DNA of 20,000 nt from an uncultured virus (IMG/VR IMGVR_UViG_3300046009_005838) (IMGVR_UViG_3300046009_005838), one strand, 5' to 3'. Positions 3,358 to 20,000 are shown, counted from the first letter of the stretch. Notes: generated by a model not told the origin, from the sequence alone. Program-made: numbers and translations.

Positions 3358-3383
3358 GATTTCTTGGTTCTTATGTTATTTGT

Positions 3384-3391: not shown

Positions 3392-3395
3392 AAAA

Positions 3396-3548: not shown

Positions 3549-3765
3549 TGTTTAAAGATTGAGTGAGCCTGTGAAGCTCGGTGAAAAGATTTTGAAGTTT
3601 TGCCGCTTTCTCTGGGAGCAAATGAAAGTCATCTGCCATCTCAGTTGAATGACTGATTACGACTTTCATTATGTCCCCATCGGAAACGCCCTTTTGTTCT
3701 GCCGCAGCCATCATGTCAACAATAGCCTGAAAAGAATCGTAGAACGAAATTTTTATTGAATCCAT
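3538..3765 (-). CDS. Hypothetical protein (75 aa)
   Basis: Start reassigned to ATG 3765 (MDSIKISF...), which overlaps the upstream stop as TAATG. Confidence 0.65.
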   Translation of the reverse strand: MDSIKISFYDSFQAIVDMMAAAEQKGVSDGDIMKVVISHSTEMADDFHLLPEKAAKLQNLFTELHRLTQSLNNGN

Positions 3766-5610: not shown

Positions 5611-6080
5611 GGTCTTATCGTTTTAAAGTCGTTTTCAAATGTACTTATTAATTCCTTCTTCTCTTCCTTCGTTGGATAAATGTAACGGAATATTGTCCTG
5701 AAATTAAAGTAGAGAAAGCCAAAGAATGATAGCGAAAACAAAACAGTAATTAGTGCCGCCTCTGCAACGTAATCCCACGTTTCCATAAACGGCAATGCTG
5801 CATAAGGATCTGTTTCTCTAATCCATTCCCTGATTAGATACACGCCACCAATAAGAACTAACGCCATTGGAGCGTCTGCAAATCTTTGAAGAAACCATTT
5901 TGTACCCGAATAGCCTTTTCTCAATCCAAACGAAAGTGCCTTCTTTCCAAAGTGGCCAATGAAAATAGATCCGTAGTAACCAACTACAACACAAGCCATG
6001 ATAACCACGAAGGCAATGCCAACAACTACACCAAAGATAGCCAGCATAATTAGTCCAGAACCTTTGAGTAAATCAAGCAT
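5520..6080 (-). CDS. Multi-pass membrane protein, putative holin
   Basis: About four hydrophobic segments. Immediately upstream of and overlapping the CHAP lysin. Confidence 0.6.
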   Translation of the reverse strand: MLDLLKGSGLIMLAIFGVVVGIAFVVIMACVVVGYYGSIFIGHFGKKALSFGLRKGYSGTKWFLQRFADAPMALVLIGGVYLIREWIRETDPYAALPFMETWDYVAEAALITVLFSLSFFGFLYFNFRTIFRYIYPTKEEKKELISTFENDFKTIRPWQRLMSIPLLFSLLLLLFWVALKVVKAVV

Positions 6081-6082
6081 AG

Positions 6083-8362: not shown

Positions 8363-8580
8363 ATAGACGACTTGGTTACATTATTTAAACTGATCCTACG
8401 CAAGTCGTGAATTTTCTGCATGCCAGAAACATCATTAGCGTCCTCAGTTTCTTTTGGGCTAACAACAGCAAAGGTTTGGATACCATCTTGCATGCTTCCC
8501 TCCATGAATATCCCATGGAAGTACCCATCAATCCAAGGCGTACTAGGTCTGTTATCTTTTTTGAAAAAACACTTCTTCAT
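8359..8580 (-). CDS. Hypothetical protein (73 aa)
   Basis: Start at ATG 8580 (MKKCFFKK). Stop overlaps the portal start (ATGA). Confidence 0.65.
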   Translation of the reverse strand: MKKCFFKKDNRPSTPWIDGYFHGIFMEGSMQDGIQTFAVVSPKETEDANDVSGMQKIHDLRRISLNNVTKSSI

Positions 8581-8585
8581 GGAAA

Positions 8586-8594
8586 GCAAATGTA
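8586..8594 (-). promoter_or_regulatory. Bacteroidota -7 element (TACATTTGC)
   Basis: TAnnTTTG ending 6 nt upstream of ATG 8580. The same 9-mer occurs at 13127-13135 and 14597-14605. Confidence 0.65.
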
Positions 8595-8608
8595 AAAGAA
8601 AAAATCAT

Positions 8609-9313
8609 TCAATTTAAAATTATTTCACCTTCAATCGGACAACAAAGCTCAGGATAAAATTCCCACGTTTCTGGAATCCAATTATTGCCTCCCCAAGCAG
8701 TAGAGTTTCTTCCCGCAACAACAATAGCATCCGTGCCGTTTATATTGTGCAGACCATGTATCGCCCCTCCATTTACCCAAGCTGAACATATCGGCTTTCT
8801 GATAATGGAATTGCGAATGATATTAGTTGTTTCGTAAATAATAATCTGTTGGCTTGCCAAAAGTGTCGTGCAAACATACATAGGAGCCTTGTGCCAACTG
8901 ACAATAAACCTACGAAATGGAGCCGCGCCATCAGTTCTGTAGTAAACATATTCCAATGGATTCGGACTCGCCCCTGCAATGCCAGTGTGAATGTCGTGAA
9001 ACGGTCCCATAATGCAGTTCTTTGGAATGAAAGGATTTGCCGTTGGTATTGCAAAGGGCGTGAAAGCAAATGGTTGCCCAGCAGAAAATGACACCCACCC
9101 ATTGCTGCCAATCCAAACTTGATTATATTTAATGCCCCAAAAGCAGAAGTCAAAGCCTATCGGAAACGGTCCGCGAACCTGATCGTCAGTATAGGCTAAC
9201 AATGTTCCTTGTGGAAGCGGCAAAGTATCAAAAGGAACTTGAGAAAAAGAATACGCTTGGCCATAAGCCTTTACGCTCATTGCGACAACAAATATTGCCG
9301 ACAGTAGCTTCAT
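8609..9313 (-). CDS. Secreted NIDO-like domain protein (234 aa)
   Basis: Signal peptide ending YG-Q. TDDQVRGPFPIGFDFCFWGIKYNQVWIGSNGWVSF...IMGPFHDI...APFRRFIVSW is the nidogen-like N-terminal module common in Bacteroidota T9SS cargo proteins. Confidence 0.75.
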   Translation of the reverse strand: MKLLSAIFVVAMSVKAYGQAYSFSQVPFDTLPLPQGTLLAYTDDQVRGPFPIGFDFCFWGIKYNQVWIGSNGWVSFSAGQPFAFTPFAIPTANPFIPKNCIMGPFHDIHTGIAGASPNPLEYVYYRTDGAAPFRRFIVSWHKAPMYVCTTLLASQQIIIYETTNIIRNSIIRKPICSAWVNGGAIHGLHNINGTDAIVVAGRNSTAWGGNNWIPETWEFYPELCCPIEGEIILN

Positions 9314-9912
9314 CAGTACGTTATGTGACGCTCAATCTTTATTGTAGAAAGTATCTGCTTGAAGTGCTCGTCCTTTGCTAGTTTCGCGTTACCGTTAGCA
9401 ATGCCTTGCTCATAAACATAGAACAAGTCGCCAATATCAATCGAGTCGGGCTGGTGCCGCCCAAGTGACATCGTTGCTGAATAAATTATAACCTTGTCTT
9501 TGAAGAACTCAGGATCTTTAGCCTTCAATGTTTCGATTCCAATAGCATTTGCCTCTGTGTCATTAGATGCTGGAACAATAGCCATCGCAGGATGAGTCAC
9601 CCCTTGAACAGGATCAGTAAACAATACCTGAACCACAAACGGAATCTTTCCTTTCGAGTAAGCATTCTTTAACTCTAGGTCAAACTGATATTGAGCTTCC
9701 GCATCTTTCTCAAAGTCCTCAAAAGATTCTTGTTGCTCCTTGAAATCAAAGAACAATCCAACAATCGAAGCTATCGAAAATCCCGTTCCCATTATTCCAG
9801 AGAACAAAATCATATCCACGTGACCAATGCCAATCGCCACCATCAAAGAAATCATTGATATCAGCGTTGCAGCAGCCGAAATTCGAGCAAGCAATATTCC
9901 GTTGTAGATCAT
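9313..9912 (-). CDS. Hypothetical membrane protein (two N-terminal TMs, 199 aa)
   Basis: ORF track, hydrophobic N-terminus, TGATG coupling. Confidence 0.75.
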   Translation of the reverse strand: MIYNGILLARISAAATLISMISLMVAIGIGHVDMILFSGIMGTGFSIASIVGLFFDFKEQQESFEDFEKDAEAQYQFDLELKNAYSKGKIPFVVQVLFTDPVQGVTHPAMAIVPASNDTEANAIGIETLKAKDPEFFKDKVIIYSATMSLGRHQPDSIDIGDLFYVYEQGIANGNAKLAKDEHFKQILSTIKIERHITY

Positions 9913-9932
9913 AACTGAGTCTTGTCTTCAAT

Positions 9933-10388
9933 TTATTCTTGAACAATTGCCGCTTTAGAAGCCTCCAAATATGGAGCTAGAAATTTTGACTTGTCAATCA
10001 CATTAGCATAGTGAGCAAGTTCATCAAAATCCCATTCGTTCTCCTTAATCACCAATCGCTGACGTTCCATAATAGACTTCGCCTCGGTAATGAATTCATT
10101 GGCGCGATCAATCTCAGCCTCCATGTACTTGTTCTCGGTTAGCAATCTATCGTGGTTCTGCCTCCAGCTAGTTGCCAACTCAGATTGCTCAAGAAATTCC
10201 TGTCGCGTTGGAGAAGCCGCAAGTTTCTTCTTGTACTGATCTTTCTGAACTGACTCAAGAGCCAACCTTCCCTTTACTTCTTTAAGCAAATGAAAGAGTC
10301 TGAATATCCGAAAGGCCATTACGAATACTGCCACTACCAAGACGGCAATGATTGAGATTGAGGTAAGTGCTTCTGTGGTCATTTGCAT
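9933..10388 (-). CDS. Single-TM coiled-coil protein (151 aa)
   Basis: N-terminal TM followed by a charged helical region. Confidence 0.75.
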   Translation of the reverse strand: MQMTTEALTSISIIAVLVVAVFVMAFRIFRLFHLLKEVKGRLALESVQKDQYKKKLAASPTRQEFLEQSELATSWRQNHDRLLTENKYMEAEIDRANEFITEAKSIMERQRLVIKENEWDFDELAHYANVIDKSKFLAPYLEASKAAIVQE

Positions 10389-10403
10389 TTAGTTAAAAGT
10401 TTC

Positions 10404-10411
10404 CAAAGATA
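10404..10411 (-). promoter_or_regulatory. Bacteroidota -7 element (TATCTTTG)
   Basis: TAnnTTTG in the 23-nt gap, 15 nt upstream of ATG 10388. Confidence 0.5.
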
Positions 10412-10798
10412 TTAATTTACAACTTCCTCAGTCACTTCAACATCAGACACCGGAAACTTTTTGCTCACAACATTCTCAAGATACCACTCAGAAAAAGCAA
10501 AGCCCCAAACCTGGCGAATCCCGTCATCAAAGTCAGCATCCTTGAGCAAGCCGCCCCGACCGTTTGCAGATACATAGCGAACAATTGCCAACCACTTCTT
10601 CCGTTGCTCGGTCAGAATGTGAGCAAGTGTCTTGTCGCTTTGGCGCTTCCGCTTTGCCCTCTCTTCCAAGACCTCGTGCTTGCAAAGATCCGTTAATACA
10701 TTACTGACCATTATACTGAATGGTTTGTCCTCCTGCTTCTTCATGCATTCATACATGCAAGCAACGATTTCTCTCGCGTGTTCTCTTGAGCGTTTCAT
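10412..10798 (-). CDS. Hypothetical protein (128 aa)
   Basis: ORF track. Packs tightly with its neighbours. Confidence 0.75.
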   Translation of the reverse strand: MKRSREHAREIVACMYECMKKQEDKPFSIMVSNVLTDLCKHEVLEERAKRKRQSDKTLAHILTEQRKKWLAIVRYVSANGRGGLLKDADFDDGIRQVWGFAFSEWYLENVVSKKFPVSDVEVTEEVVN

Positions 10799-10804
10799 AT
10801 TTAG

Positions 10805-11092
10805 TTATTGGGTTAAAATGGATAGTTTAAACTTCTCGGCAATCATAAATTCAAAGGACGCACCCTCGCTTCTCTCCCAGCCTTCGAGCATGTAAATGCA
10901 ATCGCAATCCATAAGAGCAATGATACACTCTTTCATGTAAGACTCCCAGCTCTTGTCGTGGTCGTGTGGCAAGTTCATCGGGTTGACAACTTCCATCCCC
11001 GCTGATTTCAGTCGGCATTCTGCTTCTGAAAAAGCAGCCCTCGCTTGCTCAATCGGTAACCCTGTGATCTGGCCTGCAATGTAAGTTTTCAT
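10805..11092 (-). CDS. DUF4406-like (nucleoside 2-deoxyribosyltransferase-fold) protein (95 aa)
   Basis: MKTYIAGQITG...F..AE..L...G..VVNP...WESYMKECI..LMDCDCIYML.GWE.SEGA..E. Start at ATG 11092 (ATGA overlap). Confidence 0.85.
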   Translation of the reverse strand: MKTYIAGQITGLPIEQARAAFSEAECRLKSAGMEVVNPMNLPHDHDKSWESYMKECIIALMDCDCIYMLEGWERSEGASFEFMIAEKFKLSILTQ

Positions 11093-11763
11093 GGTTGGTA
11101 AAGTTCTTTTAAATATTTTCCCCATTGGTTAGCCATTGCTTCGGCTATACCTGGAAATGTTTTTGATCTTACTTTGCTTCGTTCTGATGATTTGAGTTTA
11201 AAGGCATCTGCATACCATTTAGGCTGTCTTTTTAACTTGCCACTTTTACCATCAATCCATTCAAACATCTCACCCTTTCCAACGTGTGTTACTTCATCAT
11301 CAAATAAATTAGGAGATGAGTTATGATATAATGCTGGTAAGTTTTGTAGCCATAAACAAGTTGTCTTTTGCGCTTCGTCACCAAAAAAGTATGGCTGAAT
11401 TTTTTGTGTTGGTGGCTTATAAATCTTGCTCATTATTCCAATCGGATTCTCAATAGCAATATGTTTAATGGGAGCATTAACCATTGCCATAAAAAAATCA
11501 ATACCTTCTTGTTGCCGTCCGTCTGCCCTTTTCTTTTCGAAATGCGGAGCGCCCGAAACGGCCAAATGTGTGCAAGGAGGAAAAGCAATCATCGCATTCC
11601 ATCCGTCATTGATAATATCAAATACGCTTCCTTGGTAATGTTTAGCATCAGGGTTTCTGTTTGGCTGCAAGTCGCAGGACCAAGCATCAAATCCAAGTGC
11701 TTCAAATCGACCTCTGACTTCATCAGATTCTTCGCAAGCTATTAAAATGCGCAATTCGTTCAT
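11089..11763 (-). CDS. Phage DNA cytosine-C5 methyltransferase-like protein (224 aa)
   Basis: ILIACEESDEVR...AWSCD...IAFPPCTHLAVSGA (PC motif), IAIENP (ENV-like) and KTTCLWL...RSKTFPGIAEAMANQWG. Confidence 0.8.
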   Translation of the reverse strand: MNELRILIACEESDEVRGRFEALGFDAWSCDLQPNRNPDAKHYQGSVFDIINDGWNAMIAFPPCTHLAVSGAPHFEKKRADGRQQEGIDFFMAMVNAPIKHIAIENPIGIMSKIYKPPTQKIQPYFFGDEAQKTTCLWLQNLPALYHNSSPNLFDDEVTHVGKGEMFEWIDGKSGKLKRQPKWYADAFKLKSSERSKVRSKTFPGIAEAMANQWGKYLKELYQP

Positions 11764-12125
11764 GGTTGGTCGTTTTCGGTTTCGTCTGCAAATGGATTGT
11801 CTGAATTATCTCCAGTGTATTCTACGTACTCAGCATACATCTTAATCATCGCTGCTACGTTCACTCTGCCATTGGCTTTGATCTCATCTAAAATATCAGC
11901 AAGAAAAGCCTTGTGGTGACTATCTTGTTTCTTGACAAATATATACCCATTTGGCAAATAAAAAAAGGTGAAATCAAAATCTACAAAATCTTTAATCTCA
12001 TCCCTCATGTACTCCCAATAAACAGGCTTGCCAGCGCGAACCCTTCTGACATTCTTCTTAAACTCTTGGGTGTACACCACTTGCCTCCAGTTAGGCATCT
12101 TTTCTTTTTCTTGAGTAGCTTCCAT
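11760..12125 (-). CDS. Hypothetical protein (121 aa)
   Basis: ORF track. ATGA overlap with the MTase. Confidence 0.75.
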   Translation of the reverse strand: MEATQEKEKMPNWRQVVYTQEFKKNVRRVRAGKPVYWEYMRDEIKDFVDFDFTFFYLPNGYIFVKKQDSHHKAFLADILDEIKANGRVNVAAMIKMYAEYVEYTGDNSDNPFADETENDQP

Positions 12126-12127
12126 TT

Positions 12128-13120
12128 TTACAGTAGTCTAAATTTTTTAACATCCCGAAGGCATGATGAATGAAGTCTTAAATTGCTCGGATTCAAATAA
12201 GGCTCAGATTCAGTCGGCAATAGTTCCAAGGTTACAGAATCATAGTACCTCAAAGGATTGTTCACGCTGTGAAAGATTCGGCACTCAGAGCAAGCGTTAA
12301 ACTTGAAGTCAGCGTTGACATAATCTCTTATCCTGTCGTACTTCGGACTTCGAATATCCTTCACGTATTTCGAATACTTCCTAGTGTAAACCCTAGCCTT
12401 TTCCCGTCTGCATTTCTTGCAATCATAATGCATCGCAGTCACCCTTCCTCTCGCAGCGGCTAATGGCGTTACTCGCTTGCTAAATTCATCCAACGGATAA
12501 TAATCAGCGCAAGTGTTGCATTGTCTTTCGCCTTCCTTCAAGTCGTCAATCCGTTCGTTGTCCTCAACAGATCCTTTTGCCCTCGTGTCACGTTCCTTCT
12601 GTGGGCTATCCTTGTCTGCTAGAATCAACTTTCTGGTTTTGCTTGAAGTTCGCCTCGCGCCACCTCGCTTCGGTCGCTTAGAGAACATCTCCTGCGCGCA
12701 ATCATTACAGAAGAAGTAGGCATTCTTAAACTTGCTGTTAGATGCAAAGACAGAATAAGGTTTGGTAGCATTCTTATCCTCGTAAGCATAAGAGATTTCT
12801 TCATTCTCACTACCGCATCTTTGACATGGACATTCCGAGAGAACAAATACATTGTACCTTGCCATCTTCAAATACCTCTCAGCAGACAATCTTGACTTAG
12901 GTAAGAACGTGCTTAGAGTTAGCATATAAGTGTGAGGAACTTTCAATGCCTGAGTTGGCATATCCTCGTGCGGATCTACACCGTCACACTCTCTGCAATA
13001 CTTGTTGACATACTCTTTCCCGTGGGCAAAATCATTCATCGGTTTAGCCTTGCAACACTTGGTGCAATACTTCTTTGGTCCTTCTAAAAATAGCCTCGGT
13101 AGCTGGGTTAAAATGCTCAT
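12128..13120 (-). CDS. Multi-CxxC zinc-finger protein, possibly degenerate HNH-associated (330 aa)
   Basis: CTKC/CREC, CQRC/CNDC, CNTC/CKKC and CSEC/HSSC pairs. First gene of the leftward arm. Confidence 0.75.
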   Translation of the reverse strand: MSILTQLPRLFLEGPKKYCTKCCKAKPMNDFAHGKEYVNKYCRECDGVDPHEDMPTQALKVPHTYMLTLSTFLPKSRLSAERYLKMARYNVFVLSECPCQRCGSENEEISYAYEDKNATKPYSVFASNSKFKNAYFFCNDCAQEMFSKRPKRGGARRTSSKTRKLILADKDSPQKERDTRAKGSVEDNERIDDLKEGERQCNTCADYYPLDEFSKRVTPLAAARGRVTAMHYDCKKCRREKARVYTRKYSKYVKDIRSPKYDRIRDYVNADFKFNACSECRIFHSVNNPLRYYDSVTLELLPTESEPYLNPSNLRLHSSCLRDVKKFRLL

Positions 13121-13126
13121 GATTGG

Positions 13127-13135
13127 GCAAATGTA
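13127..13135 (-). promoter_or_regulatory. Leftward-arm promoter -7 element (TACATTTGC)
   Basis: TAnnTTTG ending 7 nt upstream of ATG 13120. Confidence 0.7.
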
Positions 13136-13582
13136 AATATTTGTATTTAAAAATCAAAATCACACCCCCTCTGGATCGAAGCCCCGAAGAGTTATAAATT
13201 CTATGTGTGCTTAGATATAAAAGGAAAGCAAACAAAAATAATCCCTATGAGAATTTTTAAGAAACAATGTTATGAAAAGTTATATAATTCAGAATCAAAA
13301 GTATAGTACACTTTTAAAACTAAAAAATATATAATTTTCAAAGTGTGTTTCAAAAAAGTACTCCAAGTCATTCTTTGACATCTTAATCCCCAACAAATAA
13401 AGGTAGTCTAACTAAAAATAATGTTCCAGACAATCGGATTCAATCTGAAAAATCCTTAGTTTAAAAGTGTAAACTGCAACCTTTGACATCCCAAATGTAT
13501 TAGCACAATGCAACTTTGTGTTATCACTTTTATCCAAATGTGTAAACAGTTTAATACCTCTTGCCATCCCAAATCACTAAAA

Positions 13583-13640
13583 CTATTAGACACTTTCTTC
13601 TCTTTTTGCCCTTTTTCAGCCAAATTCTATTAGACACTTT
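13583..13640 (+). repeat. 14-bp direct repeat CTATTAGACACTTT x2
   Basis: Copies at 13583-13596 and 13627-13640. Confidence 0.85.
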
Positions 13641-14236
13641 TTGTCACAACTAACCCAAACAACCAAAAATGACCTCTTTTTACCCTCTTTTTTTTGTAAC
13701 TCATTGACAACCAAATACCCAACTCACGAACATTTACACTTTTATGCGTTTTTGGATTTTGCCGTTTTTAACATGCTATTATATGTAACTCTTTTTAAAG
13801 CATAGTTCGTAAATTTATTTGAAACGTATCGCGCAGGGGTAGAGTATATACTGTACCCAGACGGGCCGGCGGGCAAAAAAAACAGCCCCACCCACCTAAC
13901 CCACCCCACCCCCTCGAGAAAAACGCAAACCAAACCAAACAACGACACAGAAAAAAAGAAAATCGAAACCCGAACCCACGCAAGCAAGCATACATACATA
14001 AGAACCACAAAGAACCGCGCCCGCCCGCCTGCCAACATAGAAAGAAACCGACACAACCGAACCATTGTATCGGAAAAGGATCGGACCAACAGCACGACAA
14101 TAGGAAACCAGGCAAACCAGATCATGCAAACGGGCAAACCTGCAGAAGATCGAAAGAAAATTTCCTTTACAAGACCAATCCGCCAACCAAACCAACCCAA
14201 ACCACCGGCAAAGGACCAAGAGAGAGAACCACCAAA

Positions 14237-14344
14237 CAGAACATAATTTTGTGGGACAGGTAAAAGCAGAATAAAATTTTGTATTAAAAGGTAAATGCAG
14301 AACAATATTTTGTTTAACACAGAAAGGACGAAACATTATTTTGT
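14237..14344. repeat. Four phased ~16-bp repeats, consensus CAGAACAWWATTTTGT
   Basis: Starts at 14237, 14267, 14298 and 14329 (30/31/31 bp period). Confidence 0.85.
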
Positions 14345-14354
14345 TAGCCAATAT

Positions 14355-14414
14355 TTTAGGCAGATCTAAAAAAATTTTTAGACTCGTCTAAATTTATTTT
14401 TAGGCTTGTCTAAA
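14355..14414. repeat. Three 16-bp palindromes TTTAG-N6-CTAAA at 22-bp period
   Basis: TTTAGGCAGATCTAAA 14355-14370, TTTAGACTCGTCTAAA 14377-14392 and TTTAGGCTTGTCTAAA 14399-14414. Confidence 0.9.
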
Positions 14415-14596
14415 TTTTTTTACAAGGTCCTGAGAACCTGCGAACCTTTGCCAACATTATATATAAGAACCCAAAAAGTAAACGTTTATATAAATATGCA
14501 AATTAAACGCATTGATTTTCAACCACTTACAAAAATAGCCTATTTATTACTGCAATTATTTTGAGTAAGTAGTAGGATATATCAAAACAACTTTTG

Positions 14597-14605
14597 TACA
14601 TTTGC
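14597..14605 (+). promoter_or_regulatory. Rightward (early) promoter -7 element (TACATTTGC)
   Basis: TAnnTTTG 44 nt upstream of the first plus-strand ATG (14649). No clean -33 TTTG seen. Confidence 0.7.
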
Positions 14606-14648
14606 TCAACTTAAAACCAGGGCAGAAGCCCACAAAAGACCAAACAAT

Positions 14649-14816
14649 ATGAAAACATCTAGAATCTTTGCCGCATTTCTTTTCATGTACTGCCCTTGCG
14701 CCCTTTACATGATATTGACAGCCCCGAACGCGCCTACCCTTGCGCTTGTTATTTTCAGCATCATGATATTGATAGTCATGTTTTTTGCGGGCAAAATCTT
14801 AGTTAACAAATATTAA
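14649..14816 (+). CDS. Small two-TM membrane protein (55 aa)
   Basis: Manual translation MKTSRIFAAFLFMYCPCALYMILTAPNAPTLALVIFSIMILIVMFFAGKILVNKY. Variant motif AAAGACC upstream. Confidence 0.65.
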   Translation: MKTSRIFAAFLFMYCPCALYMILTAPNAPTLALVIFSIMILIVMFFAGKILVNKY

Positions 14817-14851
14817 TTTTCAACCAGGCACCCGCCACAATTCAAACGACC

Positions 14852-15172
14852 ATGATAACCACCACCACCACCACCGAAACTGTAACACCTCAACAGTTCA
14901 CAAGAGTAAACAACGACACAAACGGAAACCCCCGATATGTTATACACTTTTTAAACTTATCAAAAGATGAAGACAGGATAAGCATAAACGCTCAATATCC
15001 AGGATATTTAACAAGCACAAGCCTTTTATATTCAATAGCCTTAAAACGCGCCAAAAAGATAGGAGGAAAAAAATTTCACAACAAGCAATACGGCGGCGGC
15101 ATAGTTTTTCAATCTTACAACATACAGGCAACAGCCGACAGAATAAACGAACTACTAACAACAGGTAAATAA
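14852..15172 (+). CDS. Phage hypothetical protein (106 aa)
   Basis: AAACGACC-ATG start. FTRVNNDTNGNPRYVIHF...GGKKFHNKQYGGGIVFQSYN looks like a conserved phage early-protein motif. Confidence 0.85.
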   Translation: MITTTTTTETVTPQQFTRVNNDTNGNPRYVIHFLNLSKDEDRISINAQYPGYLTSTSLLYSIALKRAKKIGGKKFHNKQYGGGIVFQSYNIQATADRINELLTTGK

Positions 15173-15193
15173 TAACCCCCAAACAAAACGACC

Positions 15194-15592
15194 ATGAAAA
15201 CGACCAACAAACAGCACCCGATTTTTGCCTACTTAATTAACCAACTACCAACCGTTCAAGAAATTACCAACGAATACGGGCCAGAAGTTGAAGACACGAT
15301 ACAGAGCCGCCTTAATTTTGTTGTTAGAACCTTTGAGCAAGAATATTGCTACCCTGAGAACCTGAAAAGATACGGCAACAAAACGCGCACCCTTGAAAAC
15401 TGGTTCAGGGGCCTACCTTCAATCTATTCTATTGAATACAGAAACCATGCAATTTTAGAAATTGCCCAAGAAATGGGAGCGCTAAAGCCAAACGCAACCG
15501 AAGCCCAAGAACAGAAAATCCTAGACAACTGGTTTAACTTTGTCGCCGTGAAATTTGCCCAACTTTGCAAGTTTAACAAGGTAGAATTCTAA
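15194..15592 (+). CDS. Phage hypothetical protein (132 aa)
   Basis: AAACGACC-ATG start. WFRGLPS...N..IL motif. Confidence 0.85.
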   Translation: MKTTNKQHPIFAYLINQLPTVQEITNEYGPEVEDTIQSRLNFVVRTFEQEYCYPENLKRYGNKTRTLENWFRGLPSIYSIEYRNHAILEIAQEMGALKPNATEAQEQKILDNWFNFVAVKFAQLCKFNKVEF

Positions 15593-15601
15593 ATCTATTT
15601 T

Positions 15602-15649
15602 TCCCGTTAGCAACGAGCGAAGCCGGAGCGATACCGGCAGCGGGAGCCA
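15602..15649 (+). ncRNA. tRNA-like mini-helix (acceptor stem + T-arm + GCCA)
   Basis: TCCCGTT(15602-08)/AGCGGGA(15639-45) 7-bp stem, GCCGG-AGCGATA-CCGGC 5-bp stem with 7-nt loop, then G-CCA. No D or anticodon arm. Confidence 0.55.
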
Positions 15650-15663
15650 ACTAAACGACCACC

Positions 15664-15837
15664 ATGAAAAATCTAATTTTAGAACTTGCAGAAATTGCCA
15701 ACGAGCAAAGAAACAGCCTAATAATGGAAAAGCAGAACGCAACAAGCGAAGAAGCTAAAAAAGTAGTTCAATCTATGATTGATGAAGTAAACAACACCCT
15801 TGACAAAGTAAACGCGAAGTACAAAACAAACTACTAA
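15664..15837 (+). CDS. Hypothetical helical protein (57 aa)
   Basis: Manual translation MKNLILELAEIANEQRNSLIMEKQNATSEEAKKVVQSMIDEVNNTLDKVNAKYKTNY, preceded by AAACGACCACC. Confidence 0.8.
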   Translation: MKNLILELAEIANEQRNSLIMEKQNATSEEAKKVVQSMIDEVNNTLDKVNAKYKTNY

Positions 15838-15848
15838 ACGCCCTCAAC

Positions 15849-16061
15849 ATGATAACGACCACGCAACCAATTTACAACGGCCTAAGCATACGACAAATAA
15901 TTGGCCGCCTTCATCCTGAGATGATAAAACAACACCGCAAAGAATACCTGAAAAATTGTATTGAAGTTTACAAGAACGAGAAAGCCGGCACCAATCTAAC
16001 ATGGAACCAGGCCGCAAGAAATAGCAATTTCAACTTAATACTTTTTTACTTGAAATCATGA
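15849..16061 (+). CDS. Hypothetical protein (70 aa)
   Basis: ORF track. Motif lies inside the first codons. Confidence 0.8.
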   Translation: MITTTQPIYNGLSIRQIIGRLHPEMIKQHRKEYLKNCIEVYKNEKAGTNLTWNQAARNSNFNLILFYLKS

Positions 16062-16231
16062 AGACCGCCAAAGAAACGCCCTATCTTCAGTCATTAAGAA
16101 GAAGACTAAAACACGCGCAAGAACATGAAAGCCAAAGTAAAAACATTGAAGACATACAAAACAGAATTGATACATGGACAAGCAAGCCCGAAGCCGATCT
16201 AAATTTTTTTAAGTACACACCAAAAAATTGA
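16058..16231 (+). CDS. Hypothetical protein (57 aa)
   Basis: Manual translation MKTAKETPYLQSLRRRLKHAQEHESQSKNIEDIQNRIDTWTSKPEADLNFFKYTPKN. ATGA overlap. Confidence 0.7.
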   Translation: MKTAKETPYLQSLRRRLKHAQEHESQSKNIEDIQNRIDTWTSKPEADLNFFKYTPKN

Positions 16232-16235
16232 CAAC

Positions 16236-16694
16236 ATGAAAACGACCAAATTTTCAACCCTTGACTGGAAAGATAAAACAATGTTCACCGGCAAAAAAGT
16301 AACTAGTTTATTTATTGACAACATCGAAACGAATATTTATTTTTTTGAGAACGACACAGAAGCCGAAGCGAAAGCCCGCAAGACCGCCAATTTAATACAA
16401 CGCGGAGAAATTTACCCACAAGACGGAAACTGGAAATTTTTTGATATTTGCGGACACATTGAATACAAGATCGAAGCAATAGAAGAAACCGAAGAAAGCC
16501 CAGGAGCATTTAATAACCTAGTAAGCAGATCAGGCCACCCAATACCACAAGAGAAGAAACAGGAAATTATTGACAGCTTAATAGGTAAAACCGAGCACTC
16601 GCAGTGGATTAAAATGTACGACAAGAGCCTCAACAAGCTCAACAAACTTTGCATCAAATTTTACCCATACGGATACACTGTATTTTTCAAATAA
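16236..16694 (+). CDS. Hypothetical protein (152 aa)
   Basis: ORF track. The MKTT start encodes the motif. Confidence 0.8.
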   Translation: MKTTKFSTLDWKDKTMFTGKKVTSLFIDNIETNIYFFENDTEAEAKARKTANLIQRGEIYPQDGNWKFFDICGHIEYKIEAIEETEESPGAFNNLVSRSGHPIPQEKKQEIIDSLIGKTEHSQWIKMYDKSLNKLNKLCIKFYPYGYTVFFK

Positions 16695-16712
16695 CCCAAA
16701 CGACCGCAGCAC

Positions 16713-16919
16713 ATGAAAACCGAAGCAATTGAGATTGAAGACCTTTTCAACACCCCTGAGAAATTGCCCACCGAAGTACAGATCATCCTGGAAAACTTTG
16801 CAGAACGTGAGCAAACCTATGAGAACTGCCAACAGTTAGAACAAGCACTCAGGCCCCACGGCTACACTTTTAGTTGGGGCCTAGATGCAGAACCATACGA
16901 CCTAAGAAAAACAAACTAA
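16713..16919 (+). CDS. Hypothetical protein (68 aa)
   Basis: Motif upstream. DLF..PE.LP.EVQ.IL...GYTFSWGLDAEPYDLR pattern. Confidence 0.85.
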   Translation: MKTEAIEIEDLFNTPEKLPTEVQIILENFAEREQTYENCQQLEQALRPHGYTFSWGLDAEPYDLRKTN

Positions 16920-16943
16920 CAAACCACCAAAACGACCAAAGCC

Positions 16944-17144
16944 ATGATTAAAGGAGAAAAAACAAACTTTTTTACAGACGTAAAATTGCCAGTACATGCC
17001 GGAATGAAATACCAAAACGGCAAAATAATAGATTACAAAATCAAAAAAGTAGGACATGAAATTTATCGCCACTACTTTGACACCGAAGAGAAAGATTGCC
17101 AGGTAGGAAGCGAAAAGATCAAAAGAGTAATTTATTCAAATTAA
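16944..17144 (+). CDS. Hypothetical protein (66 aa)
   Basis: ORF track. Motif upstream. Confidence 0.75.
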   Translation: MIKGEKTNFFTDVKLPVHAGMKYQNGKIIDYKIKKVGHEIYRHYFDTEEKDCQVGSEKIKRVIYSN

Positions 17145-17241
17145 GCCAATCTAAGCAATCCAGACCCCGAAACCATACCAACACACCGCCCAAACAATAA
17201 AACAACGGCACAAGCCACCAAACAACCAAAAAACGACCACC

Positions 17242-17472
17242 ATGGACCAATTTATTTTAAGAGAAAATGTATTGACAGATAATACATTGATCGTAGCAAG
17301 CAAAGGAAAAATTTTCAAAGGAGGATATATTGCAATCCTAAAAGAATACACCTATCAAAACGCTTGGACTGATAAGGAAGAGATAAAAAAATTCAAAAGC
17401 AAAGAAAGACTTTTGAAATATATCAAATCATTTTACCCTGATTTCGACTTAATGGACATTGAATTAAATTAA
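17242..17472 (+). CDS. Hypothetical protein (76 aa)
   Basis: ORF track. AAACGACCACC-ATG start. Confidence 0.8.
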   Translation: MDQFILRENVLTDNTLIVASKGKIFKGGYIAILKEYTYQNAWTDKEEIKKFKSKERLLKYIKSFYPDFDLMDIELN

Positions 17473-17495
17473 ACAAACGACCAAAACCCAAACCA

Positions 17496-17672
17496 ATGAC
17501 AACGACCAACAATTTAGGAACTTACCATGATAGATGGTTCAAGACCTACAAAGGGAAAATATATAAAAACACGCCCACAGACATAAACACCGCAATAAAC
17601 AACAAGGCAATAATTGACAACACGAAGCCAGTAAAAGCTATTTTAACAATCTCAAAAACGACCAACCAATGA
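17496..17672 (+). CDS. Hypothetical protein (58 aa)
   Basis: Manual translation MTTTNNLGTYHDRWFKTYKGKIYKNTPTDINTAINNKAIIDNTKPVKAILTISKTTNQ. ATGA overlap with the next gene. Confidence 0.7.
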   Translation: MTTTNNLGTYHDRWFKTYKGKIYKNTPTDINTAINNKAIIDNTKPVKAILTISKTTNQ

Positions 17673-17974
17673 CAACCAACCACACCGCAGGACCATGGAC
17701 CTACAAAGATAGTTTTGAGCTAAATGTAATCCAAAAGAATAACCCAGAAGCCGAAGCAATTTGCGAAGTAACAGGCAACCCCGCAGAACAATTTGCCAAC
17801 GTCCGATTAATAGCAGCAGCTCCCGAACTTTTGGCAGCATTGATCGAAGCCCAAAATCTTGTTAATCTTTGCCGCCAGTATATGCCGAAATCTATAAAAA
17901 ACAGCGACCGTTTTACATTTGAGAACACCGCAGCCAACATAATCGACAAAGCCATCCAAACCGCAGTTAAATAA
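17669..17974 (+). CDS. Phage protein of the HTxGPW...ANxRLIAAAPELL type (101 aa)
   Basis: HTAGPW and ANVRLIAAAPELLAAL motifs, common in phage early regions. Function unknown. Confidence 0.85.
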   Translation: MTTNHTAGPWTYKDSFELNVIQKNNPEAEAICEVTGNPAEQFANVRLIAAAPELLAALIEAQNLVNLCRQYMPKSIKNSDRFTFENTAANIIDKAIQTAVK

Positions 17975-17995
17975 CGACCAAACCCAAACGACCAA

Positions 17996-18457
17996 ATGAA
18001 GACCTTACACGAACTTAAAGTAGCAGAAGTAGAACTAACCTACAAAAGCAAAATAAAGCCATCAGAACGCCCCAAAGTAATTAATTCAGACCAAGTAAAC
18101 GAAATATTACAGGCAGCATTTGACCAGGATAAGATAGAACACGTTGAAATGTTCTATTTATTACTACTCAACAGAGATAACAAAGTTTTAGGAGTTAAAA
18201 AAGTAAGCGAAGGCGGGACCGCCTCAACAATAGTGGACCCAAAGATCATTTTTCAGACCGCATTGAAAGCAAACGCGAGCGCAATAATTTTGTCGCATAA
18301 CCACCCCAGCGGAAACCCAAGGCCAAGCGATGCAGACAAAGCAATAACAAAACAGATAAGCGAAGGAGGAAGGATACTCAACATTTCAGTTTTGGACCAT
18401 GTAATTGTGCTACCTGAAAACAAGTTCTATTCATTTTCAGATAACCAACTAATGTAA
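17996..18457 (+). CDS. radC: RadC-like JAB/MPN domain protein (153 aa)
   Basis: E.F.LLLLNR.NKVLG...SEGG...VDPKIIF..AL...A..IILSHNHPSG...PS..D..IT......LDHVI. Confidence 0.93.
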   Translation: MKTLHELKVAEVELTYKSKIKPSERPKVINSDQVNEILQAAFDQDKIEHVEMFYLLLLNRDNKVLGVKKVSEGGTASTIVDPKIIFQTALKANASAIILSHNHPSGNPRPSDADKAITKQISEGGRILNISVLDHVIVLPENKFYSFSDNQLM

Positions 18458-18463
18458 ACGACC

Positions 18464-18652
18464 ATGACAGCAGATAAAATTAAACATTACATAGGCGAAC
18501 AAGTATTCGACCACATTTGCAGCCTTGACAAACAAAATCTGGAAACAATGAAGCGGAACATAATTTCCGACATAAACAACATAAAACACGATTCAAAAAC
18601 ACTTTTCAAGAGAACCATAGAACTTGAATTCATCAAAAACAGACTTTCTTAA
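18464..18652 (+). CDS. Hypothetical protein (62 aa)
   Basis: TAA-ACGACC-ATG junction. Confidence 0.8.
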   Translation: MTADKIKHYIGEQVFDHICSLDKQNLETMKRNIISDINNIKHDSKTLFKRTIELEFIKNRLS

Positions 18653-18659
18653 AACGACC

Positions 18660-18947
18660 ATGATAGCACAAGGATACCACCCGACCGCCAGAACTTATGC
18701 CAACGTAGAAACGCAGCAAAAGTTCAAAATGTACCAGCACCAAGATACCAAAGAATTGAAGCTGATAGACGAGCAAACGCACGAAGAAGCAAACAGTTTT
18801 TATACGTGTGCTTTCACTGATTGCGAAGTGAAACTAAATACCGGAGAGATCGTAAGCCTACGACAAGGAACATTTTTCGCACAAACCGCAGATCGGAAAG
18901 TAATTGCCAGGAAGTTCTTCATGGAAAAACGATTCAGAAAAATATAA
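18660..18947 (+). CDS. Hypothetical protein (95 aa)
   Basis: Start reassigned to the ATG directly after AAACGACC (MIAQGYHP...). Confidence 0.8.
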   Translation: MIAQGYHPTARTYANVETQQKFKMYQHQDTKELKLIDEQTHEEANSFYTCAFTDCEVKLNTGEIVSLRQGTFFAQTADRKVIARKFFMEKRFRKI

Positions 18948-18952
18948 CGACC

Positions 18953-19105
18953 ATGATAGCCTACTCAGTAACAATAGACACCGGCAAAGGACCGCAGACT
19001 TACAGGACCTTTGCCGACACCAAAGCCGAAGCAAAATCAAAAGTTTGCGCCTTCATGCAGACCGAACCAAACTCAATTCATTCAGTTAAAAAACTAAAGA
19101 ACTAA
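18953..19105 (+). CDS. Hypothetical protein (50 aa)
   Basis: Start reassigned to TAACGACC-ATG (MIAYSVTIDTGKG...). Confidence 0.8.
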   Translation: MIAYSVTIDTGKGPQTYRTFADTKAEAKSKVCAFMQTEPNSIHSVKKLKN

Positions 19106-19111
19106 ACGACC

Positions 19112-19354
19112 ATGAGCAAGAACATAACATTGACAACGCAAGGAATTAAAGGCGGCAGCGCCAAAGTTCAGAACGTAGGATATTGCCTACTTGAATTAAG
19201 ACACGACCAAGACCGCATAACCGTTGATGATTTTGAAGGAAGCGGAGCAAATTACAAGCAAAGAGAACAGCAGAAAATTCAGATCATTGAAAACGGAGCA
19301 ATTCTTTTTGAGGGAACTAAATACGAACTTTTTGAAATACTTAAAAAAGCATAA
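19112..19354 (+). CDS. Hypothetical protein (80 aa)
   Basis: TAA-ACGACC-ATG junction. Confidence 0.8.
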   Translation: MSKNITLTTQGIKGGSAKVQNVGYCLLELRHDQDRITVDDFEGSGANYKQREQQKIQIIENGAILFEGTKYELFEILKKA

Positions 19355-19355
19355 C

Positions 19356-19625
19356 ATGCAAACGACCGAACTAAGAGTAACAGACACCGCAGGAGGACAC
19401 CAATTTGCTATCGTTGATGATAGCACAGGACAAGACATTGCCCTCGTTTATAATCGTAACGAAGACAGCAGAAAGACCGCGCAACTTCTGGCAGCAGCCC
19501 CAACCATGCTAACGGAGCTGTTGCACGTATCGGAAAGAATCGGAACAGTCCGACCTGATGATGCGTTTTGCCAAGCACTAAAACAAATTATTGACCAAGC
19601 AATCCAAAAAGCCACACAGCTATGA
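19356..19625 (+). CDS. Second AAAP-motif protein (89 aa), probable paralog of 17669-17974
   Basis: Start reassigned to ATG 19356 (MQTTELR...). AQLLAAAPTML...IIDQAIQKA. Confidence 0.8.
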   Translation: MQTTELRVTDTAGGHQFAIVDDSTGQDIALVYNRNEDSRKTAQLLAAAPTMLTELLHVSERIGTVRPDDAFCQALKQIIDQAIQKATQL

Positions 19626-19852
19626 ATGCAGGAGCAAAAAGGATAAACCCAAGCGGACGGGCAAAGATTGACACCGCGAAAAACCTGATAAGATTTTCAA
19701 CATCACCGTTTGACGGTGGTGGATTCGTAAAGACTGCAATTTCAGAACTTAGAAAAGAAGGAATTGAAATAATTTACGATAAAAATAAATGCAGATACTA
19801 CAACACCAAAACAATCTCCTCAATTTGGGGATATAACACCACCAACCTATGA
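19622..19852 (+). CDS. Hypothetical protein (76 aa)
   Basis: ORF track. ATGA overlaps at both ends. Confidence 0.7.
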   Translation: MNAGAKRINPSGRAKIDTAKNLIRFSTSPFDGGGFVKTAISELRKEGIEIIYDKNKCRYYNTKTISSIWGYNTTNL

Positions 19853-19992
19853 AATCATTCATTCAATCCAGGATCCACAACCGCATAAATGCCAGGGCAG
19901 CAGCCAAGGCAAACCAATGCCAACTCTACACACATTCAGACGTGATGTTTTTACGCCAAATAAAACCAATTATAGCAGCATTAAAAGCCTGA
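19849..19992 (+). CDS. Hypothetical protein (47 aa)
   Basis: Manual translation MKSFIQSRIHNRINARAAAKANQCQLYTHSDVMFLRQIKPIIAALKA. ATGA overlap. Confidence 0.55.
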   Translation: MKSFIQSRIHNRINARAAAKANQCQLYTHSDVMFLRQIKPIIAALKA

Positions 19993-20000
19993 TATATGCC

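Follow-up and report, generated by a model that had tools for sequence, protein, structure and literature searches.

The window analysed here, a 20,000-nucleotide stretch of DNA, belongs to an uncultured lake phage whose host probably lies in the Bacteroidota. It contains an array of 20 small, co-directional ORFs (47–153 aa, with spacers of −4 to 97 nt; Table 1), on whose + strand a terminator scan found no terminator-like sites. Gene starts are our own ORF calls (first ATG, longest ORFs), made without a gene finder. The second gene, g2 (start codon at 14852), is TreK-like (PF24229, 8.9e-23), g13 (17996) is RadC, g3 belongs to phrog_11100, and g12 and g18 to phrog_1273. We infer that these are early genes, because (i) the Aeromonas phage 4L372D record has homologues of g2 and g3 as neighbours close to its start, and (ii) Staphylococcus K-like phages carry TreK in their long terminal repeats. 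The first gene is preceded by a promoter-like box, TACATTTGCTCAA, which we take to be of the Bacteroidota −7 type (consensus TAnnTTTG); a pattern scan places an inverted copy at 13123–13135, facing the leftward operon.

The heptamer AACGACC occurs 20 times in the window when both strands are counted: 19 times on the + strand between 14845 and 19367, exactly as the original prediction had it (19 copies, all on the coding strand), and once on the − strand (11768–11774), an addition to that list. Dinucleotide-shuffled versions of the window hold a mean of 1.52 and a maximum of 5 copies (none of 200 shuffles reaches 20). For region 14641–20000, with its A/C-rich local background, 0.95 (order 1) or 1.29 (order 2) copies are expected from Markov models, and simulations of orders 1–3 (500 each) peak at 4, 5 and 12 copies. 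AACGACC is the commonest 7-mer in this region—the runner-up, an unrelated 7-mer, has nine copies—and reaches a density of 3.5 copies per kb in the array. The core is weakly extended to A-AACGACC-A, with A at −1 in 15/19 copies and at +8 in 17/19.

All 19 array copies lie wholly within −23 to +12 of a start codon (binomial P = 5.6e-19; these intervals around the 20 ATG-first ORF starts make up 10.9% of positions), and no copy in the window is mid-gene, which bears out the predicted placement within about 16 nt of a start. The motif marks 16 of the 20 array genes, three of them with two copies, in keeping with the claim that nearly every early gene carries it. No exact copy is present at the remaining four: the first gene, and three that begin with an ATG overlapping the stop codon upstream. 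Split by overlap, 15/16 non-overlapping genes are marked versus 1/4 ATGA-overlap genes; the exception, g12, starts within the stop of g11 and yet carries the motif. The gap between motif and ATG is 0–16 nt, and 0 nt in the six cases that had been predicted; at the last four of these the junction is indeed TAA plus 5–7 nt plus ATG. The distance from the upstream stop to the motif, on the other hand, varies from −2 to 87 nt, so the motif is tied to the ATG rather than to the stop. Five copies lie at +6, in codons 2–4: two of them (genes 15194 and 17496) supplement an upstream copy, while at 15849, 16236 and 19356 the exact motif is found at +6 alone, as foreseen. The Thr-Thr pair at codons 3–4 is written ACG-ACC in 5/5 cases, which we count as nucleotide-level selection.

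Table 1. Array, promoter-like box and motif copies in the window.
Feature	Position	Strand	Remarks
Promoter-like box TACATTTGCTCAA	14597..14609	+	40 nt upstream of first gene; pattern match only
Array	14649..19992	+	20 small co-directional ORFs
Near-cognate AAAGACC	14635..14641	+	one mismatch; 7 nt before ATG of first gene (14649); no exact copy there
AACGACC	14845..14851	+	abuts ATG 14852 (g2); kept in L086 and L087
AACGACC	15187..15193	+	abuts ATG 15194 (g3); kept in L086 and L087 despite differing spacer
AACGACC	15199..15205	+	second g3 copy, +6 (codons 2–4, MKTT); L086 and L087 instead read ATGAAAACCAAT
AACGACC	15654..15660	+	3 nt before ATG 15664 (g4)
Near-cognate AACGCCC	15837..15843	+	5 nt before ATG 15849 (g5)
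AACGACC	15854..15860	+	only exact copy of g5, +6 (MITT); kept in L086
AACGACC	16241..16247	+	+6 of g7 (MKTT); upstream spacer just 4 nt
AACGACC	16699..16705	+	7 nt before ATG 16713 (g8)
AACGACC	16931..16937	+	6 nt before ATG 16944 (g9)
AACGACC	17232..17238	+	3 nt before ATG 17242 (g10); ends a 97-nt A/C-rich spacer
AACGACC	17476..17482	+	13 nt before ATG 17496 (g11)
AACGACC	17501..17507	+	second g11 copy, +6 (MTTT)
AACGACC	17657..17663	+	5 nt before ATG 17669 (g12), within last codons of g11
AACGACC	17973..17979	+	overlaps g12 TAA stop; 16 nt before ATG 17996
AACGACC	17987..17993	+	2 nt before ATG 17996 (g13, RadC)
AACGACC	18457..18463	+	abuts ATG 18464 (g14); first A is final base of TAA stop
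AACGACC	18653..18659	+	entire 7-nt spacer before ATG 18660 (g15)
AACGACC	18946..18952	+	abuts ATG 18953 (g16); overlaps TAA stop
AACGACC	19105..19111	+	abuts ATG 19112 (g17); overlaps TAA stop
AACGACC	19361..19367	+	+6 of g18 (MQTT); upstream spacer 1 nt
AACGACC	11768..11774	-	sole copy outside array; 4 nt before ATG 11763 of DNA methyltransferase gene (11089–11763)

AACGACC is thus a real, lineage-specific signal. Composition might seem to offer another origin: A makes up 40% and C 23% of the array's + strand, the spacers are A/C-rich, and several members of the g2 family have Thr-rich N-termini. That such spacers and N-termini, or chance, gave rise to the motif is refuted by the counts, the Markov models and the start-position test, and also by the facts that no other 7-mer behaves in this way, that the motif includes G, a base the region otherwise avoids, that its Thr-Thr codons are invariant, and that relatives keep it although the flanks change. 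The original prediction had named the A/C-rich background as the finding that would overturn it; that background yields about one copy (orders 1–2) against the 19 observed.

A short conserved word ahead of each gene, in an array devoid of internal terminators, recalls the gene-start signals of other viruses, such as the nidovirus TRS and the minimal promoters of jumbo phages. By this analogy, a phage RNA polymerase could use AACGACC as a minimal promoter or initiator; alternatively, the word could be a processing site that yields one mRNA per gene. We regard this as very unlikely: the +4/+6 copies lie downstream of their own ATG, where a transcript start or a cut would lose or destroy the ORF, host-type promoter boxes precede the array, and several spacers are 5–7 nt long, no more than a stop codon plus the motif. 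Further, a virion-polymerase regime has been mapped in a single Bacteroidota phage, whose early transcripts are described as having no shared upstream motif (bioRxiv 10.1101/2020.03.07.982082, in excerpt). The suggestion of an antitermination signal at every gene is likewise not supported, and an RNase could target the motif only by making an inactivating cut, given the five copies in codons 2–4.

The only motif copy outside the array precedes a DNA methyltransferase gene (phrog_757, 5e-60) and lies within the last codons of the upstream ORF. The remaining 19 of the 20 leftward genes have no copy, and neither do the late and structural genes of this phage. The methyltransferase gene is mobile, being common to 79 otherwise unrelated contigs; as the lone tagged gene of another operon, it looks like the member of a regulon.

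Two short metagenome sequences, L086 and L087 (1.7 and 1.8 kb, 86–90% nucleotide identity), were the only close relatives found. They carry seven and three AACGACC copies, respectively, all on the + strand. Eight of their nine gene starts are marked, including those of genes missing from the window and that of the first L087 gene, which follows the promoter; gene L086:1294 has just a one-mismatch copy, and one copy (L086:1432) is mid-gene. The redundant second copy of g3 is absent from the relatives, while the sole copy of g5 is retained. In L086, g4 has lost its upstream copy along with the 56-nt spacer; the spacer that remains is 15 nt long and holds no motif, and AACGACC appears instead at +4 (ATGAACGACC), changing MKN to MND.

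The gene in front of g2 differs in all three related sequences. Between g4 and g5, L086 carries an additional gene that is flanked by 17-nt imperfect direct repeats (TAAACGNNCTCAACATG, the junction type of g5), and in three lake runs a variant contig matches the window to 17488 and then continues with other sequence containing an ATG of its own. The window, L086, L087 and the lake variant thus differ by whole-gene swaps and one-gene indels. Their breakpoints lie in various places: that between the window and L087 coincides with a stop codon, that of L086 precedes AACGACC by 6 nt, that of the lake variant follows copy 17476–17482 by 6 nt, and others are inside the degenerate 17-nt junction repeat and 19 nt into g14. 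None falls on AACGACC itself, and the predicted micro-homology joint is not borne out; given selection for intact genes and short spacers, breakpoints near the motif are to be expected in any case.

The broader possibility that the 7-mer is kept mainly as micro-homology for single-gene cassette exchange, with any effect on expression secondary, strikes us as improbable. It draws on the swaps themselves, on every copy being a direct repeat, on the mobility of the one tagged gene outside the array, and on the ATGA-overlap pairs, each of which would act as a single cassette. There are parallels: the PeSL cassettes of T4-type phages consist of a promoter and a stem-loop, tens of nucleotides in all, and mosaic phages have 'boundary sequences'. 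As in these, a repeat stands before each small early gene, offering possible homology for shuffling, and swaps are seen between relatives. Unlike PeSLs, however, AACGACC has 7 nt—very short for homologous exchange—no stem and no promoter features, and the breakpoints are off the motif. A joint would need neither to hug the ATG, as six copies do at 0 nt, nor to be re-created in codons 2–4 after loss of a spacer. The methyltransferase gene, moreover, is tagged on one flank only, and attC-like inverted repeats are absent at the junctions.

The signal is private, as had been proposed. In 243 other phage loci (2.49 Mb; 158 of them carry the same g2 family, and they probably include Bacteroidota phages), AACGACC stays at background (0.038 per kb per strand; at most 3 per strand in any 5 kb), and only L086 and L087 share the tagging with the window. 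It is also, as stated at the outset, not a Shine-Dalgarno (SD) sequence: the complement GGU[C/U]GUU is found in 1/31 Bacteroidota 16S rRNAs, with no conserved site, and the best duplexes with 16S rRNA (−7.3 and −7.8 kcal/mol) are no stronger than the median for 600 random 7-mers. Across 61 Bacteroidota genomes, AACGACCATG reaches no more than 19 occurrences in any one genome, similar to a backwards control, and AACGACC is not enriched before ATG as a general start context. A common host reader is unlikely, because enrichment is lacking in both these genomes and the 243 phage loci. AACGACC is predicted to be unpaired with a mean probability of 0.51, versus 0.21 for all 7-mers in the transcript.

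These properties set the motif beside, and apart from, the known initiation signals. Like the SD, it is a short word near almost every start that is missing at translationally coupled genes; unlike the SD, it lacks complementarity to the 16S 3' tail or any conserved 16S site, prefers a spacing of 0 rather than 5–9 nt, also occurs downstream of the AUG, and is confined to one gene set in one phage lineage. The Kozak-like context of Bacteroidia (A at −3, −6, −12 and −13; PMC6847099, in excerpt) also works without an SD, and positions −3 and −6 are filled with A when the tag abuts the ATG. Host genes share this context as a statistical adenine preference, whereas AACGACC is a fixed word that includes C and G and is movable relative to the AUG. 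The stop-start junctions (TAA-ACGACC-ATG) in polycistronic RNA resemble termination-reinitiation signals, of which the calicivirus TURBS acts through rRNA pairing; for AACGACC no rRNA pairing was found, and the tag also stands before the first gene of L087 and after spacers of 35–97 nt. In prokaryotes the comparison is with ATGA coupling (PMC6728339, in excerpt).

Most likely, judging from the sequence evidence, AACGACC controls translation of the whole gene set. The direction of control is where the two leading explanations part. The main rival, somewhat unlikely in our view, is that the tag is a positive, private start signal: in a host without SD pairing, it would bring the 30S subunit to early cistrons or position it there, so that cistrons inside a polycistronic, A/C-rich mRNA that is unstructured are marked as true starts. 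The reader could be bS1 or another host protein, a factor delivered by the virion, or a ribosome that the phage has altered. Such a signal fits the presence of the tag on 15/16 independently initiated genes and its absence from 3/4 coupled ones, its relocation rather than loss upon spacer deletion, and its predicted unpaired state. With the preferred spacing of 0, and also with the 3-nt ACC spacer, A falls at −3 and −6, where it acts positively in F. johnsoniae (PMC6847099, in excerpt). The tag is found on nearly all independent genes, including swapped-in ones and the first gene of L087, a distribution that resembles a requirement for expression more than an optional off-switch. Against a positive signal stand the lack of a 16S complement and of enrichment in host genomes and phage loci, the absence of an exact copy at the window's first gene, and the fact that the late, structural and 19/20 leftward genes manage without the tag. 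Known ribosome-read positive elements, furthermore, do not act at both +4/+6 and −7 to −23.

The explanation that we favour, with a probability of roughly 40%, is a coordinated shut-off of early genes via the tag, in the manner of T4 RegA/RegB or an sRNA seed. In T4, likewise a virulent phage with a short sequence shared by the unstructured initiation regions of many early mRNAs, one phage product inactivates the tagged mRNAs jointly: RegA competes with the ribosome at about 30 mRNAs, and RegB cuts GGAG in early initiation regions, inactivating them (PMC3014915, in excerpt). The systems differ in sequence: RegB targets the SD itself, and RegA recognises loose A/U-rich stretches with the AUG among them, while AACGACC is an exact 7-mer, is not an SD and can lie in codons 2–4. 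Small-RNA targets provide a second likeness, being 6–10-nt single-stranded sites around the start codon that are effective on either side of the AUG (the 'five-codon window' for targets at initiation regions). In Bacteroides, from a phylum without SD, the sRNA GibS has been shown to repress by base-pairing over start codons (PMC7366714, in excerpt); there, a long seed serves few targets, as opposed to one 7-mer on 16 genes here. Pairing over 7 nt alone is weak, which counts against an sRNA reader, and an antisense partner was not found in this window.

Further observations count against shut-off. Among these are the small number of relatives, two short sequences, together with the mid-gene copy L086:1432 and the one-mismatch copy of L086:1294. 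Searches of the 41 window ORFs against Pfam and PHROGs returned no RegA, RegB or other RNA-binding family, and the 20-kb window holds no hairpin or loop with GGUCGUU. The A at −3 and −6 set by an abutting tag is, in addition, a positive determinant in Flavobacterium (PMC6847099, in excerpt).

Under the shut-off model, AACGACC would be a cis-acting tag of early mRNA, one for each cistron that must initiate independently, lying in unstructured RNA under the initiating 30S subunit (about −23 to +12 around the AUG). It would act on RNA, at initiation and in the negative direction, and would be read not via the 16S rRNA tail but by a sequence-specific, trans-acting, lineage-private factor. That the code is private suggests a co-evolving reader encoded by the phage, and a reader made by the phage would not be required for the very first translation but could end it. 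Candidates are a small RNA-binding protein, a RegB-like endoribonuclease or a 7-nt small-RNA seed; a protein would bind or cut AAACGACCA RNA. Once bound to, or cutting at, the tag, the reader would block 30S loading; sites that function at any position under the ribosome, before or after the AUG, are the pattern of steric initiation blockers. Genes whose ATG overlaps the upstream stop would follow their upstream partner and so need no tag, and tags that abut the ATG may additionally set an A context that is favourable in Bacteroidia. The proposal of an RNA-binding factor or altered ribosome acting near the start is, of the mechanisms originally put forward, the one that best fits a motif that is tied to the ATG on either side, missing at 3/4 ATGA-coupled genes, predicted to be unpaired and retained in relatives; its corollary, that early mRNAs are prioritised, is less secure, as shut-off fits at least as well. 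In that case, a single product would switch off the early set, together with the methyltransferase gene, at the early-to-middle transition.

The heptamer AACGACC occurs 20 times in the window, against an expectation of 1.5, a count that none of 200 shuffles reaches. It is the commonest 7-mer of the array of 20 small rightward ORFs (gene starts are from our own ORF calls), where low-order Markov models lead one to expect about one copy within the A/C-rich background, and where 500 simulations at each of orders 1 and 2 never gave more than five. Composition as a cause is ruled out by these shuffles and simulations; the A/C-richness that the original prediction wished to see checked against a Markov background is excluded. 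All 19 array copies fall between -23 and +12 of a start codon, in windows that make up 10.9% of array positions (P = 5.6e-19), and the start-linked pattern first read from the bare sequence is therefore real.

At least one copy accompanies 16 of the 20 array genes. Fourteen copies stand upstream of the ATG, at gaps of 0 (six copies), 2, 3, 3, 5, 6, 7, 13 and 16 nt, and five lie exactly at +6 (ATGNN-AACGACC, encoding M-x-T-T). The four untagged genes are (i) the first, which has AAAGACC nearby and lacks an exact copy, and (ii) three whose ATGA overlaps the preceding stop; a fourth gene with such an overlap is tagged. The anchor is thus the ATG rather than the stop, with either side of the ATG allowed, and each independently initiated cistron has one tag, which is dispensable where translation is coupled. 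The flanks are scarcely conserved apart from an A at each side. The twentieth copy lies on the opposite strand, 4 nt ahead of the ATG of a methyltransferase gene, and none of the other leftward genes in the window is tagged. At the junctions themselves, TAA is the stop in 14 of the 15 non-overlapping array genes with a scored stop, and at four junctions one or two letters are common to stop and tag (T-AACGACC or TA-AACGACC).

Features of the window referred to in the text
Feature	Coordinates	Strand	Description
Leftward block	3-13120	-	Structural, lysis and DNA-metabolism ORFs
Methyltransferase gene	11089-11763	-	phrog_757
AACGACC at the methyltransferase gene	11768-11774	-	
Non-coding gap	13121-14648		1.5 kb, between leftward block and array
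Leftward operon box	13123-13135	-	
A/C-rich, T-poor tract	about 13870-14240		
Tandem repeat	14258-14319		31 nt, with ATTTTGT boxes
Palindromes	14365-14418		TCTAAA...TTTAGA
Rightward operon box	14597-14609	+	
Rightward array	14649-19992	+	20 small ORFs (g1-g20)
g2	ATG 14852	+	TreK-like, PF24229
g3	ATG 15194	+	phrog_11100
GC-rich hairpin-like stretch	15600-15650		In 71-nt g3-g4 spacer
g12	17669-17974	+	phrog_1273
g13	ATG 17996	+	RadC
g18	19356-19625	+	phrog_1273

The leftward ORFs include endolysin-like, CHU_C (type IX secretion) domain and DUF4406/nucleoside deoxyribosyltransferase-like proteins, a DNA methyltransferase and an HNH/Lar-like protein. In the array, g2, g3, g12, g13 and g18 are the ORFs with any relatives; g12 and g18 are paralogues with a common AAAPELL/AAAPTML helix, both tagged, one upstream of its ATG and the other at +6. 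In the record of Aeromonas phage 4L372D, homologues of g2 and g3 are neighbours close to the start, and Staphylococcus K-like phages carry TreK in their long terminal repeats; from these positions it is a reasonable inference that the array is an early, host-takeover-type set of a virulent phage. A Bacteroidota host is inferred from (i) the CHU_C domain, (ii) promoter-like TAnnTTTG boxes, which we take to be the Bacteroidota consensus, and (iii) the taxonomy of genome matches to the g2 family, 7 of 11 of which, including the six best, lie in metagenome-assembled genomes that bear the labels Cyclobacteriaceae, Chitinophagaceae, Sediminibacterium, Spirosomataceae, Dyadobacter and Sphingobacteriales. 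Such a phage-host system would be SD-less. DNA of the window is found in lake and freshwater metagenomes (24 runs among the matches listed, none of them an RNA run, from which nothing follows about expression). The window holds no tRNA gene and no Rfam family, a single chance miRNA match (E 0.64) aside.

Several features of the gap and its surroundings are recorded here in their own right. The same box, TACATTTGC[C/T]CAA, precedes both divergent operons, the two together forming a 13-nt inverted repeat (92%); the leftward one ends 7 nt from the ATG (13120) of a 330-aa gene, so that the leftward mRNA would be nearly leaderless. The palindromes are kept in the array relative L087 (273-326, 89% over 54 nt), a conservation that suggests operators or an origin. 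The GC-rich stretch, which starts GTTAGCAACGA, has a similar counterpart in L087 (532-560), after a TATATTTG box and ahead of the first gene, and is missing from L086, the other array relative; a promoter inside the array, followed by a stem-loop at the 5' end of its transcript, is one candidate reading.

The statistical case for AACGACC as a start-codon tag is overwhelming: the tag is real, private to the lineage, and placed on an array of presumably early genes. A metagenome scan with a g2-family alignment returned 80 loci, of which just L086 and L087, the closest pair (86-90% nucleotide identity), have the array in common with the window; these are also the only motif-enriched ones, with 7 copies in 1.7 kb and 3 in 1.8 kb, respectively, all on the coding strand. 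In the remaining 78 loci, 383 kb together, the motif is found 12 times, on either strand. With the loci from the IMG/VR scans among the controls, motif density is 3.5 per kb in the array versus 0.038 per kb per strand in 243 control loci, whose maximum is three copies per strand in 5 kb. AACGACC is absent from L097, which is more distantly related (g2 61%, g3 52% and RadC 42% identical). A screen of the control loci for any start-adjacent 7-mer found nothing comparable (the best, at 7 of 49 genes, was SD-like); it excluded words with at least five identical letters and missed A/T-rich blocks in four loci. Those blocks are found in other phages with a g2 (TreK-like) gene, each of which has its own repeated block ahead of each small gene: TTAAAAATTGTCAAYN-ATG at 4 of 4 genes in L094:90-1300, and TTTAAAA-type blocks about 10-16 nt upstream in L112:440-2300, L102:400-2400 and L172:400-2100. 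These blocks could be promoters, or else forms that the Bacteroidota A-rich leader takes in each lineage.

Searches of named phages and IMG/VR gave no close relative. Against named phages, the sole blastn match of 13100-20000 covers 93 nt and lies in an Aeromonas phage, and tblastn of two large leftward proteins gave none. In IMG/VR, the 759-aa protein had no close relative (two at 24% identity), g3 found no locus, the g2 family found 80 loci, none above 64% identity, and a pattern scan with AACGACCATGNNAACGACC found four loci with 2-5 copies each, taken as chance. The methyltransferase found 79 loci (L007-L085) with genes 40-83% identical and nothing else in common with the window; among the leftward genes this one, exchanged widely, is alone in having the tag. 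Among the papers listed by literal-word and concept searches of the literature, none was found to describe the motif.

In L086 and L087, eight of nine gene starts are tagged. The window, L086 and L087 each have a different gene ahead of g2, and every new gene comes with a tag of its own that abuts the ATG (two in L086, AACGACCAAACGACCATG); in the alignments, the g2-g3 spacer has changed around an identical tag. The redundant +6 copy of g3 is missing from both relatives, and the sole copy of g5, likewise at +6, is retained. The g3-g4 spacer of L086 is 56 nt shorter and without a tag, which reappears at +4 of g4 (ATGAACGACC), changing MKN to MND. Also in L086, g4 and g5 are separated by an additional gene, bounded by imperfect 17-nt junction repeats, with only a one-mismatch copy at its start and one copy mid-gene.

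The position rule, together with single-strandedness (predicted unpaired probability 0.51 for the motif versus 0.21 for the rest of the transcript), makes it probable that the motif is an RNA signal acting at translation initiation. Our preferred reading, held tentatively at a probability of about 0.4, is a regulon-wide shut-off tag whose reader would be a protein, a nuclease or an sRNA seed. That the word is private and has no rRNA complement suggests a sequence-specific reader co-evolving with the phage. Such a reader, if phage-made, could not be a requirement for the earliest round of translation in the infected cell, yet could end it, and a site that functions anywhere in the ribosome-covered window would behave as the sites of steric blockers do. 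In T4, the RegB site doubles as an SD. According to PMC3014915, T4 RegA competes with ribosomes on ~30 mRNAs and T4 RegB cuts GGAG within early initiation regions; the mark of such targets, a short, unstructured motif shared by initiation regions, is seen here in 16 of 20 genes that are probably early. GibS, in the account of it in PMC7366714, represses Bacteroides mRNA by pairing across start codons. The likeness to known phage translational regulons is one of logic; the tag differs in sequence, placement and putative reader. Among the 41 ORFs of the window (20 kb of the genome), no Pfam or PHROG match to RegA or RegB (RelE/YoeB-like RNase) was found. On the plus strand GGTCGTT occurs once, opposite the copy at the methyltransferase gene, and no plausible RNA gene within the window has a loop-exposed complementary 6-7-mer. 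Outside the complements of the tags, no exposed GGUCGUU was found in the window. Other analogies that we have drawn on are PeSL, TURBS, TRS, the five-codon window and MazF-type 7-nt sites.

The main rival, a positive private start signal, we consider rather unlikely; it and shut-off are compatible, as the double role of the RegB site in T4 illustrates. In its favour, the tag is near-universal, accompanies genes that have only recently been swapped in, and is present at the first gene of L087. The SD-less initiation context of Bacteroidia consists of adenines at -3, -6 and -11 to -14. An abutting tag, or a 3-nt ACC spacing, supplies the A at -3 and -6, and these have a positive effect in Flavobacterium according to PMC6847099; the other spacings do not supply both, and the invariant C and G are foreign to that context. 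Copies downstream of the ATG, and the lack of the word in host-type genomes and in the phage's other genes, argue against it. Also unlikely is an orthogonal start-selection system, with the tag, a private, non-SD, seven-letter code, as its cis half. The reader would be a ribosome altered by the phage, or else a phage factor that is brought in by the virion or present very early, and would read the tag on either flank of the AUG and channel the ribosomes of the SD-less host to phage early cistrons; other lineages would use other words, as the blocks of other g2-family phages might illustrate.

Very unlikely is a recombination joint as the primary function, the cassette-junction option of the original prediction. 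Gene swaps among the relatives are real, but the breakpoints are scattered around the motif rather than on it. T4 PeSL cassettes carry functional repeats that may help shuffling, and by analogy AACGACC may be a functional repeat that does so incidentally. Contigs from other lake samples (among the pieces listed) follow the window to 17488 (three runs) or 18482 (two runs) and then diverge, and hence variants with other genes at these places co-exist in nature; four runs assembled against the window gave, among those listed, short contigs identical to it and a few loose ends. Integron cassettes end in attC, an imperfect inverted repeat of ~60-140 nt; integron-type cassettes are rejected, as the junctions have no inverted repeats and several spacers are just 5-7 nt.

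The remaining candidates fail. An SD lies about 5-9 nt upstream of the start and pairs with the anti-SD (CCUCC) at the 3' end of 16S rRNA. AACGACC has no GGAGG-like core, hence no CCUCC complementarity; the 16S rRNA tails of 31 Bacteroidota read ...CACCTCCTTT and variants, none with GGTCGTT; and the spacing breaks the rule (0 in 6 of 14 upstream copies, range 0-16, five at +6). The view that this is not an SD therefore holds. In two Bacteroidota 16S rRNAs, one of them L257 (G004), the anti-SD core is altered: the tail reads ACATCTCCTTT or ACATCTCATTT where others have CACCTCCTTT. The search of the 31 rRNAs and the duplex energies also speak against an rRNA-pairing enhancer or reinitiation element (TURBS-like, epsilon-like): GGU[C/U]GUU occurs in one of 31, at no conserved place (the true host's rRNA may differ), 6-mers in four of 31, at no conserved exposed site, and the best 16S duplex energy is no better than the random-7-mer median. 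Pairing with the initiator tRNA is rejected as well: in three initiator tRNAs examined, only GGUCG (variable region and T-stem) matches, in two. None of 61 Bacteroidota genomes has more than 19 copies of AACGACCATG, a level that the backwards control also shows; this speaks against a general host start context within a sample, and is no proof, the true host not being among known genomes. A promoter or productive processing site is ruled out because the +4 and +6 copies lie downstream of their ATG, and scanning-type selection leaves no sign (68 array ATGs observed versus ~72 expected). Chi-like, primase-recognition (GGTC is contained in the complement) and nick sites, RNase P/CCA-end mimicry and Hfq ARN motifs were dropped because they leave the tie to start codons unexplained.

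How start codons are chosen without SD pairing in Bacteroidota and their phages is an open question, and early-gene timing by these phages is almost unstudied. The tag offers an unusually clean handle: 16 of the 20 presumably early genes have exactly one and the same seven-letter word, placed by a clear rule, and the relatives of the array provide natural "experiments" in which the word is retained, lost if redundant, or shifted across the ATG. Whichever the direction of its effect, the reader should be findable. The outcome could be a new regulon-wide translational switch or a new mode of marking starts, and either would aid the annotation of small phage genes and the design of Bacteroidota expression tools.
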